Shown: positions 1,719 to 23,192 of the stretch, piece after piece
How positions within the stretch are numbered: position 1 is the stretch's first letter
Layout: each line of letters begins with the position of its first letter
The notes under the pieces: model-generated
What the model was told of the DNA's origin: nothing
What the model saw: the letters and a program-made list of their open reading frames with translations, nothing else
Database searches by the model: none
Source: Acidimicrobiales bacterium
GTDB lineage: Bacteria; Actinomycetota; Acidimicrobiia; Acidimicrobiales; Bin134
Assembly: GCA_965116535.1 (NCBI GenBank)
Contig: OZ220703.1
Location: forward strand, 2,385,464 to 2,449,463
DNA length: 64,000 nucleotides
Direction: 5' to 3'
Translations under genes and position numbers: made by a program

Positions 1719-3929
1719 TCAGCCCGTGGCGGTGGGGATGACTCGGTAGGCGTTGTAGACCGATTCGATGCCTCGGATGGTGCGAAGGAGGGCGTCGAGA
1801 TGGCTGGCGTCGCTCAGCTCGAAGTCGAACCGCATGACCGAGATCTGGTCGGCACCGGTGCGGGTCTCGCAGGCCAGGATGTTGACCGATCCGGTGGACA
1901 GGGCATTGGCCACGTCTCGCAGCAGCCGGGTGCGGTCGAACGCCTTGACCTCGATGGTCACGCTGTAGGCGCCGCTGCGTTCGGCGCTCCAGTCCACGTC
2001 TATGAGCCGGTCGCCCTGCTCGATTGACAGCGAAGCGGCATTGGCGCACTCGGCGCGATGCACCGATACCCCCCGGCCCCGGGTGACGAAGCCGATGATC
2101 TCGTCGGGGGGAACCGGTTTGCAGCAGCGGGCCAGGTTTACCAGCACGTCGTCGAGGCCCTCTACCTCAACCGGCTGGTCGGTGCGCCGGGGCAACACCG
2201 AGGGCGACGAGACCGCGGCCAGATCATCGTCGAGCTCCTCTTCCGCGGCCGGCTCCACCCTCATTCCGGCCACCCGCTCGGCCACCGCCTTGGCCGACAC
2301 ATGGCGCTCCCCCACCGCGGCGAACAAGGTGTCGAGGTCTCGGTAGTTCATGTCGGTGGCCGCGTGCAGCAGCTCTTGGCCGGAGAGGATCTTGGCCACC
2401 GGCAACCGCTCGCGGCGCAAGGCGGCGGCCACCGCGTCGCGGCCGGCCTTCACGGCGTCTTCCCGCCGGGCCTGGGCGAACCACTGGCGGATCTTGTTGC
2501 GGGCCCGATGGGAGGCCACCAAGCCGAGCCAGTCGCGCGACGGCCCCTTGTCGGCCACCTTGGAAGTGAAGATCTCCACCATGTCGCCGGGCCGCAGCTC
2601 TCGATCCAGAGGGACGAGCTGGCCGTTGACCCGGGCCCCGATGCAGGCGTGACCCACCTCGGTATGGATGGAGTAGGCGAAGTCGATGGGAATCGCCCCC
2701 ATGGGCAGCGACACCACGTCGCCCTTGGGGGTGAACACCTGCACTTCGTCGTGGTCGAGGTCGGTCTTGAGGTTGCTCAGGAACTCGACGGCGTCGGAGG
2801 TCTCCTGCTGCCAGTCGATGATGCGGCCCAACCAGGCCAGATCGTCGGTGGTGGCCCCCTCCTTGTAGTCCCAGTGGGCGGCCACTCCCTGCTCGGCCCG
2901 GGCGTGCATCTCGTTGGTGCGTAGCTGGACCTCCAGCGACTTGCCCCCCGGCCCGACCACCGTGGTGTGCAGCGACTGGTAGAGGTTGAACTTGGGCATG
3001 GCGATGTAGTCCTTGAACCGCCCCTGCACTGGCTTCCAGGTGGCGTGGATAGACCCCAAAGCGGCGTAGCAGTCCCGTACCGAGTCGACGATCACCCGCA
3101 TGCCCACCAAGTCGTAGATCTCGTCGAAGCTGCGATCTTTGGTCATCATCTTCTCGTAGATGCTCCAAAGGTGCTTGGGCCGACCGGTCACCTGAGCGGG
3201 AATCCCCAGTTCGGCCAGGCGGGCTTCCACGCTGGAGAGCACCTGGGTGAGATACAGATCGCGCTCGGGCGCCCGGGTGGCCACCATGCGATCGATCTCG
3301 GCGTAGCGCTTGGGGTGCAATGCGGCGAACGCCAAGTCTTCGAGCTGGAGCTTCATGTCCTGCATGCCCAGGCGGTTGGCCAGCGGGGCGTAGATGTCGA
3401 TGGTCTCCCGGGCCACCCGATGCTGCTTTTCCAGCGGCAGCGCGGCCAGCGTGCGCATGTTGTGGAGCCGGTCGGAGAGCTTCACCACCAGCACCCGCAG
3501 GTCCTTGGCGATGGCCACCAGCATCTTGCGCATGGAGGCGGCCTGCTCCTCCTCCTGGGTGTTGAACTTGAGCCGGTCGAGCCGGGTCACGCTGTCGACG
3601 ATCGAGGCCACCTCGCTTCCGAAATGCTGCTCCACCTCGCCCAGGTTCATGGCGGTGTCCTCTATGGCGTCGTGCAGCAGTGCGGCGATCACCGAGACGT
3701 CGTCGAGCCCCAGCTCGACCACGATGTGGGCCACGGCCAGAGGATGGGTCACGTAGGGTTCGCCCGACTTGCGCAACTGCCCGGCGTGAGCCTGCTCGGC
3801 GAGGCGATAGGCGGTGTCGATGCGGTCGGCGGTGTGGTTGGGATGGCGTTCGAGATAGGCGGTGAGCAACGGACCCACGTCTTGGCCGGGCTGATCCGTC
3901 CAGGGCGACGGCCGATCGGTCAGCGTCAT
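1719..3929 (-). CDS. relA: bifunctional (p)ppGpp synthetase/hydrolase RelA/SpoT
   Basis: 736 aa. It has an HD hydrolase motif (HDAIEDT), a RelA/SpoT synthetase region, and TGS and ACT-like C-terminal regions. The start overlaps the apt stop by 4 bp. Confidence 0.95.
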
Positions 3930-19858: not shown

Positions 19859-20353
19859 TCAGATGTTTCCGAGGTCAGCCCAGTCTTCGGGATTGGGCTG
19901 CACGAGCTGGTCGATCACCTCGCCGGTGATGCCGTCCACGAACACCAGTCCCCGCTGGTCGGGCTGGGGCTCGTTGGAGTAGAGCAGGATGCGCCAGGTG
20001 GGTCGGCTGAACCAGCCCCGCCACCCCATTTGGGCCGATGCATGGCCCACGGGAAAGCCCACCGCGCCCACGGCGATCACCAACGCGTCCGACTCGTCGA
20101 TCTTCAGCTCTTTCCCGCACACGAACCCGTATGCGGCAAAGACGGCCAAGGCGATGGCCGCGCCCAAGAGCCCCCCGTTGACCAGAGGGCTGTTGGAGGC
20201 AACCGCCCAGACCACGGTGCAAACCACCGCAGCCGACAAGTAGATGATGGCCGGAATCCGGCGGCGGCTGTTGTTGGGGAACAGGTAGGGACCGACGTAC
20301 TCGCTGACGTTCAGCTCTTGTGGCAGCTCGTCGGTGATCTCGGCGTCGGACAT
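19859..20353 (-). CDS. hypothetical two-TM membrane protein
   Basis: ATG at 20353 (MSDAEITDELPQEL...). The longer track ORF, to 20560, runs through the tRNA-like element and is rejected. Confidence 0.5.
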   Translation of the reverse strand: MSDAEITDELPQELNVSEYVGPYLFPNNSRRRIPAIIYLSAAVVCTVVWAVASNSPLVNGGLLGAAIALAVFAAYGFVCGKELKIDESDALVIAVGAVGFPVGHASAQMGWRGWFSRPTWRILLYSNEPQPDQRGLVFVDGITGEVIDQLVQPNPEDWADLGNI

Positions 20354-20439
20354 CGCCTCGCTCTCGGGAATGCTGGTTTCGGCGTCGGACACCCTCGGCA
20401 AACTAGGTGGTGCAATGCATCGGGGCAACATAGGATGAA

Positions 20440-20515
20440 GGATGGAGCTAGAGGGAATCGAACCCTCCCGGCGGGGTGCTAAGGCCGGCCGGCCCGACCA
20501 CGGGTAGCCCCATCC
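20440..20515 (-). ncRNA. tRNA(Ala)-like cloverleaf, non-canonical (possible pseudo-tRNA or novel tRNA-like RNA)
   Basis: The minus strand reads GGAU-GGGGCUA-CCCGUGGUCGGG-CCGGCCGGCCUUAGCACCCCGCCGG-GAGGGUUCGAUUCCCUC-UAGCUCC-A-UCC. The acceptor GGGGCUA/UAGCUCC has G3:U70 and A73. The T-arm is canonical with loop UUCGAUU, and the D-like arm has a GG loop. The UUAGCAC loop resembles the tRNA-Ala anticodon loop, but the anticodon stem is not canonical. The core 69 nt span 20443-20511. Confidence 0.45.
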
Positions 20516-20516
20516 T

Positions 20517-20579
20517 GGAGGAAGCAACGCTTCACTCCTCGGGCCGTACCGGGCCTGCATGGCGGGTCCGGTACGGCCC
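20517..20579. other. two adjacent strong hairpins (9 bp with one bulge, and a perfect 12 bp)
   Basis: 20517-20538 is ggaggaagc-aac-gcttcactcc. In 20541-20579, gggccgtaccgg pairs with ccggtacggccc around a 15-nt loop. Only 1-2 nt linkers separate the hairpins from each other and from the tRNA-like element. Confidence 0.7.
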
Positions 20580-20583
20580 AGTT

Positions 20584-20605
20584 CAGCATATACGGAGATA
20601 TACTG
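20584..20605. promoter_or_regulatory. A/T-rich imperfect palindrome in the divergent thrS upstream region
   Basis: cagcatat-acggag-atatactg has 8-bp arms with one mismatch. It lies in the only A/T-rich stretch, 20580-20640, just upstream of the thrS ATG at 20653. Confidence 0.35.
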
Positions 20606-20652
20606 AAAACAAATGACGACGAAATTGCATGAACATCTAGGGTTGTCCGGGT

Positions 20653-22641
20653 ATGGCTGAGATCAGCGTCCTTCTCCCCGACGGCAGCACACGCACGATT
20701 CCCTCAGGGGCTACCGCAGGCGACCTCGCTGCTGACATCGGCCCCGGACTAGCCAAGGCCGCCCTCATCGCCACTGTCGACGACGTCGAGGTGGATTTGA
20801 GCAATCCCCTTGCCGACGGCCAGCAAGTTTCGATCATCACCGCTGACAGCGACGCCGGCCTGGAGACGCTGCGCCACTCCACGGCCCATGTGCTGGCCCA
20901 AGCGGTGCTGGAGATGTACCCCGGGGCCACCTACGCGGTAGGCCCGCCCATTCAAGACGGCTTCTACTACGACTTCGACCTGCCCGACGGGGCCACCATC
21001 AGCGACGACGACCTCGAGACCATCGAGGCTCGGATGCGGGAGATCATCGAAGCCGACCAGCCCTTCGAGCGCCACGAAGTGTCGGCTGCCGAAGGGCTCG
21101 AGCTCTTTGCCGACCACCCCTACAAGCGGGAGATCATCGAAACGGTGGCCCTGGCCACTGGTGCTGACGGCTCTGGGCAGCCCGCCGACGAGCTGGCCGA
21201 TGAGGTGGCCGGCGACGGCCAGATCAGCTACTACCGCAACTCGGATTCCTTCATCGATTTGTGCCGCGGCCCCCACGTTCCCTCCACCGGCCGCCTGGGG
21301 CACTTCAAGCTGATGAGCGTGGCCGGGGCCTACTGGCGGCGCGACGCCGGCCGCCCCTCATTGCAGCGCATCTACGGCACGGCTTGGGCTTCCCGCAAGG
21401 ATCTGGCTGCCCACCTGCACCGGTTGGCCGAGGCTGAAAAGCGGGACCACCGCCGCCTGGCCCGTGAGCTCGACTTGTTGTCGTGGCCCACGGAGCTGGG
21501 ACCGGGGCTGGCGGTATGGCACCCCAAAGGCGCGGCGGTGCGCCGCATCATCGAGGACTACAGCCGAAACCGGCACGACGAGGGTGGCTATCAGTCGGTG
21601 GTCACCCCCCACATTGCCCGCTCGGAGCTGTGGGAGACCAGCGGCCATCTGGACTTCTACCGGGAGTCCATGTACCCGGCCATGGAGTTGGACGGATCCT
21701 CCTACCACCTCAAGCCGATGAACTGCCCCTTCCACGTGCTGATCTACAAGAGCAGCCAGCGATCCTATCGCGACCTGCCCATCCGCATGTTCGAGCTGGG
21801 CACGGTGTACCGCTACGAGCTGTCAGGGGCGGTCCACGGACTGATGCGCTCCAGGGGATTCACTCAGGACGACAGCCACATTTTTGCCACCAGAGAGCAG
21901 GCCCCCGCCGAGATCGCCTCGCTGGTGGCCTTTGTGTTGTCGGTGCTGCGGGCGTTCGGCTTCGACTCCTTCGATTCCCGCTTGGCCACCCGCCCCCCGG
22001 AGAAGTCGATAGGTGACGACGCCGAGTGGGACCTAGCCACCGACGCCCTCCGCGATGCCTTGGTAACCGCGGAACTGGACTACGAGTTGGACGAGGGTGG
22101 CGGTGCCTTTTACGGGCCCAAGATCGACATCGACGTGCGAGACGCCATCGGGCGGAGCTGGCAGCTGTCCACCATCCAGGTGGACTTTCAACTCCCCGAG
22201 CGGTTCGGCCTCGAATATGTGGGCTCCGACGGCAACCGCCATCGCCCGGTGATGATCCACCGCGCGCTCATGGGATCGATCGAGCGTTTCTTCGGCGTTC
22301 TCATCGAGCACTACGGCGGTGCCTTCCCGGCCTGGTTGGCCCCGGTTCAAGCCGCCATATTGCCGGTGGCCGCCACCCACGCCGACTTTGCCGCCGAGGT
22401 GGAGGCCCGCCTCAGACAACAAGGCTTCCGGGTCGAAGTGGCGGAGGCCCAAGAGCCGTTGGGTCGGCGCATCCGAGCGGCCAAGCTCCAGAAGCTGCCT
22501 TATGTGCTGGTGGTGGGCGACGATGACGTGGCCCACGGCACTGTGGGGGTCAATGCCCGAGGCAGCGACGGCGACGAGCGGGGTGTGAGGCTGGAAGACT
22601 TCGCGGCCCGCCTGGGCGACGACGTGGACGCCCACCGCTAG
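20653..22641 (+). CDS. thrS: threonine--tRNA ligase
   Basis: 662 aa with a TGS domain at the N-terminus, an editing domain (HSTAHVLAQAV), a class II core and an anticodon-binding C-terminus. Confidence 0.95.
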   Translation: MAEISVLLPDGSTRTIPSGATAGDLAADIGPGLAKAALIATVDDVEVDLSNPLADGQQVSIITADSDAGLETLRHSTAHVLAQAVLEMYPGATYAVGPPIQDGFYYDFDLPDGATISDDDLETIEARMREIIEADQPFERHEVSAAEGLELFADHPYKREIIETVALATGADGSGQPADELADEVAGDGQISYYRNSDSFIDLCRGPHVPSTGRLGHFKLMSVAGAYWRRDAGRPSLQRIYGTAWASRKDLAAHLHRLAEAEKRDHRRLARELDLLSWPTELGPGLAVWHPKGAAVRRIIEDYSRNRHDEGGYQSVVTPHIARSELWETSGHLDFYRESMYPAMELDGSSYHLKPMNCPFHVLIYKSSQRSYRDLPIRMFELGTVYRYELSGAVHGLMRSRGFTQDDSHIFATREQAPAEIASLVAFVLSVLRAFGFDSFDSRLATRPPEKSIGDDAEWDLATDALRDALVTAELDYELDEGGGAFYGPKIDIDVRDAIGRSWQLSTIQVDFQLPERFGLEYVGSDGNRHRPVMIHRALMGSIERFFGVLIEHYGGAFPAWLAPVQAAILPVAATHADFAAEVEARLRQQGFRVEVAEAQEPLGRRIRAAKLQKLPYVLVVGDDDVAHGTVGVNARGSDGDERGVRLEDFAARLGDDVDAHR

Positions 22642-22688
22642 TGTCCAAATTGAGGGAAACCGACAATTCCCGATGAGAGGAGGGCCTG

Positions 22689-23192
22689 ATGCTGGAGCGC
22701 TTGTGGGCCCCATGGCGCAGCCGCTATGTGGCGGGACTTGGGGCTGATAACTCCGACTCGGGAGAGGGCACGCTGTTCGAGCGCATCTTGGCCGCTCCCG
22801 AACCAGATGAGGAGACCGGCATCTTGTGGCGGGGCGACACCTGCTTCGCGGTGCTCAACGCCCATCCCTACGGAAGCGGCCACTTGATGGTGGTCCCCAA
22901 TCGGGCGGTGGCCGACTTGGCCGATCTCACCGGTGCCGAGAGCGAGGAACTGTGGTCCGCGGTCCAGAATGCCGTGGCCGCCATCCGCCGGGCCTACAGC
23001 CCCGATGGAGTGAACGTGGGCCTCAATCTGGGTGCCGCCGCCGGTGCCGGCATTCCCGACCACCTCCACGTTCACTGCATGCCCCGCTGGCAGGGCGACA
23101 CCAACTTCATGACCACCGTGGCCGAGGCCCGAGTGCTCCCCGAGCCCCTGTCAGAGTCATGGTCCAAGCTGAAGGCTGCCTGGAGGGCTTAG
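22689..23192 (+). CDS. HIT family protein (Ap4A phosphorylase-like)
   Basis: 167 aa with the histidine triad HLHVHCMPRW. It occupies the same position next to thrS as in mycobacteria. Confidence 0.85.
   Translation: MLERLWAPWRSRYVAGLGADNSDSGEGTLFERILAAPEPDEETGILWRGDTCFAVLNAHPYGSGHLMVVPNRAVADLADLTGAESEELWSAVQNAVAAIRRAYSPDGVNVGLNLGAAAGAGIPDHLHVHCMPRWQGDTNFMTTVAEARVLPEPLSESWSKLKAAWRA

Follow-up and report, generated by a model that had tools for sequence, protein, structure and literature searches.

The subject of this work is a short tRNA-like element in a stretch of 64,000 nucleotides (nt) from an Acidimicrobiales bacterium (contig OZ220703.1, positions 2,385,464 to 2,449,463), a stretch that we analysed as a whole and refer to as the window. 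The element lies on the minus strand between thrS, which is read away from it on the plus strand together with a HIT gene, and a conserved membrane-protein gene, which starts 50 nt past the last nucleotide of the element, the discriminator A73, and is followed by pgsA, a lipid A-type acyltransferase gene and a GT4 glycosyltransferase gene. The initial annotation of the window had taken pgsA for the adjoining gene; the membrane-protein gene in fact comes first and pgsA next. Together with an AT-rich segment and two hairpins, the element forms an insertion at one junction of a thrS-HIT inversion (Table 1). It is tRNA-shaped but is no standard tRNA, and it is conserved far beyond the sequence that surrounds it.

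Read 5' to 3' on the minus strand, the element is GGGGCUA-CCCGUGGUCGGG-CCGGCCGGCCUUAGCACCCCGCCGG-GAGGGUUCGAUUCCCUC-UAGCUCC-A, followed by UCC, with segments of 7, 12, 25, 17, 7 and 1 nt (69 nt in all). A four-arm cloverleaf is its minimum-free-energy fold (RNAfold; −44 kcal/mol for 85 nt, z = −2.7). The tRNA-Ala-like cloverleaf described in the initial annotation is thus recovered in both sequence and fold, as are the missing residues 8-9, the D-like arm, the UUAGCAC motif in a large loop and the absence of a variable loop, the T arm following directly on the anticodon-like arm. Two details are amended. The view that there is no canonical anticodon arm stands, but the pairing proposed for that region gives way to a stem of 8 bp that includes one C-C mismatch, closes a 9-nt loop and is backed by compensatory changes. 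Similarly, the acceptor helix extended to 11 bp (GGAUGGGGCUA/UAGCUCCAUCC) is present in the window, but across copies only the pair U(−1):A73 of this extension is conserved. The discriminator A73 and the pairs G3:U70, G1:C72 and G2:C71 are invariant in all the copies compared below, and the element contains the structural prerequisites for RNase P and RNase Z, namely an acceptor stacked on a T arm, a GG loop opposite the T loop, and a U at −1 that is conserved.

Table 1. Positions in the window of the tRNA-like element, its parts and the features around it
Feature	Position	Strand	Basis or conservation
tRNA-like element, G1 to discriminator A73, 69 nt	20443..20511	-	sequence, fold, compensatory consensus cloverleaf, covariance model R1 106.6 bits
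Acceptor stem, 5' strand GGGGCUA; partner 20444-20450 (UAGCUCC); includes G3:U70	20505..20511	-	7 pairs in 5/5 copies
D-like hairpin CCCG-UGGU-CGGG, directly after the acceptor, without residues 8-9	20493..20504	-	invariant in 5 copies
Anticodon-like arm: stem CCGGCCGG / CCCGCCGG with C-C mismatch, 9-nt loop CCUUAGCAC	20468..20492	-	
T arm GAGGG-UUCGAUU-CCCUC	20451..20467	-	stem invariant; loop varies only at R57 (G/A) and Y60 (U/C)
3' trailer, UCC in the window; CCU or CCG in L003b, L007 and L015	20440..20442	-	
Lineage-specific insertion, ~209 nt: AT-rich segment, hairpin 1, hairpin 2, tRNA-like element, short tail	20415..20623	-	
Hairpin 1, 16 pairs	20541..20579	-	one U:A to C:G compensatory pair (RNAalifold)
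Hairpin 2, 8 pairs, on the 5' side of the element, same strand	20517..20538	-	one G:C to A:U compensatory pair (RNAalifold, four genomes)
AT-rich palindromic segment, −10-like boxes on both strands	20580..20623	.	read by eye
50-nt spacer to the start codon: TTGCCC (20423-20428), 17-nt gap, TAGTTT (20400-20405), 7 nt, GTG	20393..20442	-	
Membrane-protein gene, 177 amino acids, conserved, without Pfam match; heads the pgsA/acyltransferase/pimA cluster	19859..20392	-	
Inverted segment: thrS (20653-22641) and HIT gene (22689-23192)	20653..23192	+	Pfam, locus comparison

The evidence that the element is maintained comes from comparing five copies, those of the window and of loci L007 and L015 and the two of locus L003 (one of them termed L003b), from which the covariance model R1 was also built. 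As a neutral yardstick we used the fourfold-degenerate sites of thrS, at which a fraction of 0.29-0.33 differs between the window and L003, L007 or L015. Between the window and L007, the tRNA-like element differs at 4 of 71 sites (5.6%), compared with 14/51 for the AT-rich segment, 8/40 for hairpin 1 and 8/26 for hairpin 2 with its linker. Four differences in 71 sites have a binomial probability of ~5e-7 under the neutral rate (~0.30), and the element differs from the rest of the insertion at 4e-4 in Fisher's test. This contrast within a single insertion, 5.6% against 20-31% divergence, is independent of the tree. The four differences themselves are placed on both sides of acceptor pair 6:67, which is U:A in the window and L003 and A:U in L007 and L015 and is thus compensatory, at T-loop position 57 (G to A), and in the 3' trailer past A73. 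Alignable sequence between the two lineage groups stops at the 3' end of the element. Hairpins 1 and 2 evolve near the neutral rate, with one compensatory change in each that keeps the pairing among four genomes.

Across all five copies, the differences are confined to the anticodon-like arm except for pair 6:67 and two T-loop positions. Inner pairs of that arm change from G:C to C:G in L015 and are re-paired in L003b. Three lineages have CCUUAGCAC as the loop, with the core CUUAGCA, and the two copies of L003 have ACUUGACAC, with the core CUUGACA. Strong purifying selection acts on the acceptor, D-like and T parts, and only the anticodon-like arm drifts. The initial annotation had called for a test of conservation in relatives, and the element is indeed conserved, with compensatory changes; its suggestion of a decayed tRNA-Ala fares badly at 4/71 differences against a neutral expectation of ~30%. 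On these comparisons the element appears to be neither a chance fold nor a decaying pseudogene. That it does not decode is well supported by its 9-nt loop, its mismatches and its non-conserved 'anticodon', all of them in an anticodon-like arm that evolves rapidly. The results are compatible with an alanylatable, non-decoding tRNA-like RNA, which the initial annotation had also proposed.

It is the minus strand that is selected as RNA, since on the plus strand G3:U70 and a G:U pair of L003b would become A-C mismatches, and model R1 scores the antisense strand at 23 bits compared with 107 bits for the sense strand. A role as a thrS leader on the plus strand was rejected on the same scores and mismatches, and because the T-loop consensus lies on the minus strand. 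Selection maintains a structured RNA read from the minus strand, and it is from this observation that we infer all the mechanistic steps discussed below.

The distribution of the element is narrow. By blastn and covariance model, copies occur only in the window, L083, L003 (two in tandem), L007 and L015, always in inverted loci and every one of them between thrS and the membrane-protein gene. The L083 element is identical in sequence to that of the window and comes from an independent Logan assembly of the same species; this contig (from SRR23561550) ends inside hairpin 1, at L083 1-10, where a long palindrome probably breaks the assembly graph. The tandem copies of L003 occupy 2815-2884 and 2896-2965 with an 81-nt period; their five differences all fall in the anticodon-like arm, and their acceptor, D-like and T parts are identical. 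Model R1 finds nothing beyond this site in ~580 kb (the window plus 86 loci), and a search allowing up to 3 mismatches finds no second copy of the element in the window, where hairpin 1 is not repeated either. A dispersed repeat, whether a miniature inverted-repeat transposable element or a repetitive extragenic palindrome, was rejected on these grounds, with one copy in the window and none elsewhere in the ~580 kb examined. Among the loci for P0001, P0002, P0004, P0005 and P0007, a single one (L083) carried the element, in identical form, and the others had the ancestral gene order. A pattern specific to the element finds no further copies in IMG/VR viral contigs and only two chance matches in JGI metagenome contigs (L081 and L082), whose acceptor strands are not complementary; nor does the element match phage or plasmid records by blastn. 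A six-frame peptide query against a protein collection, designed to catch spurious reading frames over other copies, gave no match, which is weak evidence. Our literature search found nothing on such an element or on RNAs of 'Candidatus Poriferisocius', the genus discussed below.

The setting of the element was compared across 80 syntenic loci, one per species. In the ancestral order, seen in 75 of them, a cysS/mshC-like gene, thrS, HIT, the membrane-protein gene and pgsA follow one another on a single strand, separated by hardly any intergenic DNA. The thrS-HIT segment is inverted only in the window, L003, L007, L015 and L022, of which L007, L015 and L022 lie on OZ242339.1, OY760141.1 and NZ_OZ242338.1, respectively. 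The initial annotation had located the element at the breakpoint of such an inversion relative to mycobacterial gene order; this position is borne out, and the ancestral order is now seen within Acidimicrobiia, beyond mycobacteria. From the locus comparison we judge the inversion to be real, and recent within this genus. The insertion is missing from every ancestral-order locus and also from L022, which is inverted and whose intergenic region (~2898-3004) matches L007 and L015 on either side of a 207-nt gap; L022 represents either a clean deletion of the insertion or the state before it. The thrS tree is star-like, and the inverted state forms no clade in it. L005 has the ancestral order, but L003 has the inversion together with the insertion; because the rearranged allele departs from the gene tree in this way, recombination reshuffles the region between lineages. 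These two loci are ~95% identical over thrS and over the membrane-protein, pgsA and downstream genes, and only 81-88% identical in the HIT gene. At the other junction of the inversion, at 23189-23192, the stop codons of HIT and of the convergent cysS/mshC-like gene overlap (TTAG/CTAA) with no intergenic DNA, and the cysS/mshC-like gene of the window has been shortened by its final two codons compared with ancestral loci.

Downstream of the element, the membrane protein has 6490 homologues, all the named ones from Acidimicrobiia, with the sponge symbiont 'Ca. Poriferisocius' as the closest named relatives. Its N terminus in the window (20353-20392, minus strand) carries a repeat-like extension of 13 residues, VSDAETSIPESEA, before MSDAEITDELP; this extension is absent from L007, L015 and L022 and varies between species. 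A reading frame of 233 amino acids that would extend the membrane protein through the element was rejected, since homologues begin with the GTG at 20392 and the residues added upstream show no conservation at the protein level. The connection to lipid or cell-wall aminoacylation that the initial annotation had drawn from the neighbouring genes finds no support: the same neighbours occur in loci without the element, and no aminoacyl-tRNA transferase family is found in the six neighbouring genes scanned.

As for the sequence on either side of the element, the AT-rich segment contains the −10-like boxes TATGCT (20585-20590, minus strand) and TATACT (20599-20604, plus strand) and is, from its sequence, a candidate promoter. 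The spacer between the element and the membrane-protein gene is 81 nt long in L007 and L015 and cannot be aligned with that of the window. A TANNNT motif stands 6-7 nt before the membrane-protein GTG in ancestral and inverted loci alike (L001, L005, L007, L015, L022 and the window). Outside the window this GTG lies near position 3001 of the locus, and in ancestral loci the motif is built on the HIT stop codon (TAGCCT). The motif suggests a leaderless transcript that would be independent of upstream read-through. No terminator-like site lies between the element and the membrane-protein gene. When the spacer was searched for a remnant of the HIT 3' end, only ~25-30 nt before the GTG aligned above shuffled controls.

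Comparison with known RNA families shows where the element resembles them and where it departs. ARAGORN calls no tRNA and no transfer-messenger RNA (tmRNA) in the window and rejects all five copies; it likewise calls no tRNA in the 25 loci of the 'Ca. Poriferisocius' clade and the other syntenic loci scanned. No Rfam family reaches its gathering score at the element; of the checks proposed in the initial annotation, ARAGORN and Rfam thus return no call there. With canonical bacterial tRNA-Ala the element has in common the acceptor GGGGCUA/UAGCUCC, the G3:U70 pair, A73 and the T-loop consensus. It differs in having no residues 8-9, in a D loop of 4 nt (UGGU) where the canonical loop has 8-11 nt with G18 and G19, and in lacking the anticodon stem of 5 bp with its 7-nt loop, the conserved NGC anticodon and the variable loop. 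Membership of bacterial tRNA-Ala was rejected because the D and anticodon arms fall outside the definition and the element stays below the ARAGORN and Rfam thresholds.

A permissive Rfam scan of 451 nt gives two sub-threshold resemblances. The tmRNA model aligns both ends of the element (23.5 bits, E = 1e-7, gathering score 47). Like the tRNA-like domain of tmRNA (RF00023), the element has a G3:U70 acceptor, A73, a T arm of the GGGUUCGAUUCCC type and a GG 12-14 nt from the 5' end, and its T arm comes straight after a long helix with no variable loop. Unlike tmRNA, it measures just 69 nt, lacks an mRNA-like domain, a tag reading frame, pseudoknots and the GAC/GGAC junction motif, and carries a D-like hairpin where tmRNA has an open D-analogue loop. 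A tmRNA was rejected since only 25 nt separate the D-like hairpin from the T arm and ARAGORN calls none. The second resemblance, at 24.9 bits against a gathering score of 42.5, is to mascRNA (mascRNA/MEN-beta, RF01684), which is also a compact cloverleaf with neither 8-9 linker nor variable loop. It too lies inside a longer transcript, from which RNase P and RNase Z would excise the element, as we propose here. On the other hand, mascRNA is vertebrate, forms the 3' end of long non-coding RNAs and lacks alanine identity; this assignment was rejected on its score and its biological context. In function, the closest parallels under the explanation we favour are tRNA-like elements within mRNAs that RNase P and tRNase Z process, such as those of Haloferax volcanii, and the RNase P sites in operon mRNAs of E. 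coli. They would have in common with our element a tRNA-shaped processing module near the 5' end of an mRNA; there is no sequence kinship, and processing of the window element is only proposed.

Closer structural counterparts were found in phage genomes. When viral contigs were scanned for the 3' half of the element, most matches were canonical phage tRNA-Ala(UGC) genes or the 3' ends of tmRNAs, and a few were compact forms. Two further viral scans, which required an Ala acceptor with GG just 3-5 nt after it, returned 26 phage loci with Ala-acceptor RNAs of 59-79 nt in which a short hairpin directly follows the acceptor. Two of them from IMG/VR, L146 and L156, are called tRNA-Ala(UGC) by ARAGORN with the anticodon at position 30, and L156 lies inside an array of 22 tRNAs. 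Their 69-nt layout, 7/12/25/17/7/1, is identical to that of the element, and in a gapless frame the acceptor (7/7 pairs), D-like hairpin (4/4) and T stem (5/5) all coincide; their acceptor GGGGCAA/UUGCUCC is also that of L007 and L015. In these genes the anticodon stem is Watson-Crick throughout and closes a 7-nt loop (CUUGCAA). The window element, by contrast, is chromosomal, mismatched and without an Ala anticodon, and in the D-like and anticodon region its identity to them is at chance level (9-10 of 37 positions). The comparison thus shows a common architecture, not common descent. A model built from the compact phage set alone was abandoned after MAFFT aligned the D-like and anticodon helices inconsistently, and the gapless comparison was used instead.

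Among other phage elements, R1 gives L144 49 bits and L140 42 bits compared with 24-35 bits for canonical phage tRNA-Ala, among matches preselected by the acceptor/T-arm pattern. ARAGORN calls neither L144, on a phage contig with RecT and a methyltransferase, nor L140, and in Rfam both show the weak resemblance to tmRNA and mascRNA that the window element shows. Adding L144, L140 and L104 to the alignment reveals compensatory changes in the D-like and long stems, the alignment being fitted to the model and the hits chosen by pattern.

The phage contigs also contain RNAs of 76-79 nt that resemble a tmRNA tRNA-like domain alone: L106 7347-7424 (+), L145 6991-7069 (+), L127 1633-1709 (-), L155 1054-1130 (+), L157 2164-2239 (-), L148 2101-2178 (+) and L149 14351-14427 (+), the last with the same sequence as L160 612-688. 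Each has a GGGGC.A acceptor, a 5' segment of the GG..UCGA type, a long loop-capped helix, a T arm and the Ala acceptor 3' strand; they have no tag reading frame, and none is called by ARAGORN. Three compact Ala-acceptor phage genes, at L154 12201-12269 (-) and 12282-12348 (-) and L165 3315-3382 (-), have the 7-nt loops CUCUAGA (anticodon CUA, amber), CUUAAAA and GUUUAGA and are uncalled or mis-called by ARAGORN. These genes may encode tRNAs of alanine identity that serve in suppression or recoding.

Taken together, it is well supported that the element is a lineage-specific mimic of the upper half of tRNA-Ala, present once per locus except for the L003 tandem, and equally that it arrived within the ~209-nt insertion at the thrS-HIT inversion junction in some 'Ca. 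Poriferisocius' genomes. The explanation that we tentatively favour, and hold to be plausible rather than probable, is that a compact tRNA-Ala gene was captured, lost its decoding function and was kept as an RNase P- and RNase Z-processed mimic in the leader of the membrane-protein/pgsA/phosphatidylinositol mannoside (PIM) operon. The AT-rich segment would promote transcription of the minus strand, giving a transcript that runs from hairpin 1 through hairpin 2 and the mimic into the membrane-protein/pgsA/acyltransferase/pimA operon. RNase P would then cut at G1, next to the conserved U at −1, and RNase Z or an exonuclease would cut after A73. The mimic would thus act as tRNA-type punctuation, detaching the structured leader and giving the operon mRNA a defined, processed 5' end, after the inversion had presumably cost the operon its former read-through from thrS and HIT. 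The excised 69-nt RNA, with all the AlaRS (alanyl-tRNA synthetase) identity elements, may in addition be completed with CCA and alanylated. The insertion is read as promoter and leader because it is confined to inverted loci and contains, just upstream of hairpin 1, an AT-rich segment with −10-like boxes, and because the element lies 50 or 81 nt upstream of the membrane-protein gene on the strand of that gene, with no terminator-like site separating them. As general background, the acceptor/T-arm half of tRNA and its elbow are what RNase P, RNase Z, EF-Tu, AlaRS and the CCA-adding enzyme read; AlaRS depends mainly on G3:U70, and bacterial RNase P prefers U at −1.

Several points weigh against this leader explanation. 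The promoter was read by eye, a strict sigma-70 scan returns no promoter site in the AT-rich segment, and transcription from it is at present proposed. L022 is inverted without the insertion, which means that the operon can be expressed without it, and the spacer has a promoter-like motif of its own placed for a leaderless transcript, with the ancestral TANNNT at the same distance. Processing alone would require neither G3:U70 nor near-invariant stems, and it would leave the invariant AlaRS identity set and the upkeep of both L003 copies unexplained. The similar compact Ala-acceptor RNAs of phages are not found upstream of such an operon. Furthermore, only four lineages carry the element, and they exchange DNA by recombination, which weakens tree-based arguments.

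What processing leaves unexplained would be better accommodated by a stand-alone small RNA gene, whose product, an excised, CCA-tailed and alanine-charged non-decoding mimic of 69 nt, would act in trans as a non-ribosomal alanyl donor, as a decoy for proteins that bind the upper half of tRNA or tmRNA, or as a regulator of AlaRS or of tRNA-processing enzymes. The AlaRS identity set (G3:U70, A73, G1:C72, G2:C71 and G4:C69) is invariant in 5/5 copies, three copies encode CC after A73, and the L003 tandem, with identical upper halves and arms that differ at 5 positions, resembles tRNA gene arrays. Conservation breaks off precisely at the 3' end of this element, its register is that of the tmRNA tRNA-like domain and of mascRNA, and compact Ala-acceptor RNAs stand alone in phage genomes. 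Yet no partner gene lies nearby, the scan of six neighbouring genes having returned no aminoacyl-tRNA transferase family, the element has no terminator of its own, its charging with alanine is a prediction, and its absence from most congeners and from L022 marks it as dispensable. We regard a trans-acting role as possible but on balance unlikely. A broader version, in which a bacterial chromosome would have domesticated a compact phage-type tRNA-Ala as a trans-acting, alanine-accepting counterpart of the tmRNA tRNA-like domain without the tag, within a wider, so far undescribed class of compact Ala-acceptor RNAs common to phages and their hosts (exemplified by L140, L144, L154 and L163-L166 and by the 77-79-nt elements L106, L127 and L145), is one to which we give only about one chance in a handful. 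The same enlarged loop that speaks for a non-decoding RNA could instead belong to a compact, alanine-charged tRNA that reads a rare or four-base codon: ARAGORN accepts phage tRNAs of the same layout as tRNA-Ala(UGC), one inside the 22-tRNA array, and the loop retains CUU...CA, like an anticodon loop with U33. We consider this most improbable, since the 9-nt loop is closed by a stem with C-C or A-C mismatches, its central bases vary by lineage (UAG or UGA, and AGC or GAC in the other frame), a 7-nt frame would put C at position 37, and ARAGORN rejects all five copies.

Two further accounts would dispense with the function of the RNA. A fragment of a phage-type tRNA gene could have been captured as filler when the inversion break was repaired, its conservation reflecting recent recombinational spread. 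The position exactly at the inversion junction, the absence from one inverted genome and the degenerate anticodon arm all agree with this, as does the distribution of the inversion off the gene tree, given that L003 is ~95% identical to the ancestral-order L005 and the region thus recombines. Recent transfer would, however, keep the whole insertion similar, whereas the flanking segments are 20-31% diverged and the mimic 5.6%; compensatory changes in the stems and intact upper halves in both L003 copies also argue against filler, and we think it improbable. The junction location could also mean that the site acts as DNA, as an attachment or recombination site, or the remnant of one, of a tRNA-targeting integrative element that caused the inversion as well; the tandem duplication in L003 and look-alike elements near the ends of some phage contigs would fit. 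Attachment-site remnants, however, retain only the 3' part of a tRNA gene, and here both acceptor strands are present, which also makes the truncated duplicate or attachment-site remnant considered in the initial annotation unlikely. The other junction, with its overlapping HIT and cysS/mshC-like stop codons, holds no second copy, and no phage or plasmid record matches. The genes flanking the junction in the window, L003, L007 and L015 are thrS, HIT, the membrane-protein gene and pgsA, with no integrase or phage-like gene seen there, though no specific search for one was made. With G:U pairs and compensatory changes that indicate selection on RNA, a DNA-level site has very little to recommend it. 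The leader explanation remains the one that we would put forward, with the reservations given above.

The finding is real and not ordinary, and it is narrow in scope: it concerns few species and may be just a captured tRNA-type processing signal. If it is only such a signal, it would be a modest example of how a promoter and leader can be captured after a rearrangement. Non-decoding tRNA-shaped RNAs are well documented in eukaryotes and viruses, as with mascRNA and the viral tRNA-like structures; to our knowledge, cases on bacterial chromosomes have rarely been documented, tmRNA and Y RNAs aside. The present one is young and datable, with sister genomes that show the ancestral arrangement, the inverted one and the insertion. 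It has also exposed, in phage contigs, compact Ala-acceptor tRNA-like genes that standard tRNA finders miss. Selection holds the upper half of the molecule constant and lets the anticodon arm run free, and this split predicts use by the readers of the acceptor and T arm, namely RNase P, RNase Z, the CCA-adding enzyme and AlaRS. The most fitting description of the element is thus a compact gene of the tRNA-Ala type in which the decoding half has been freed from constraint while the upper half is maintained.

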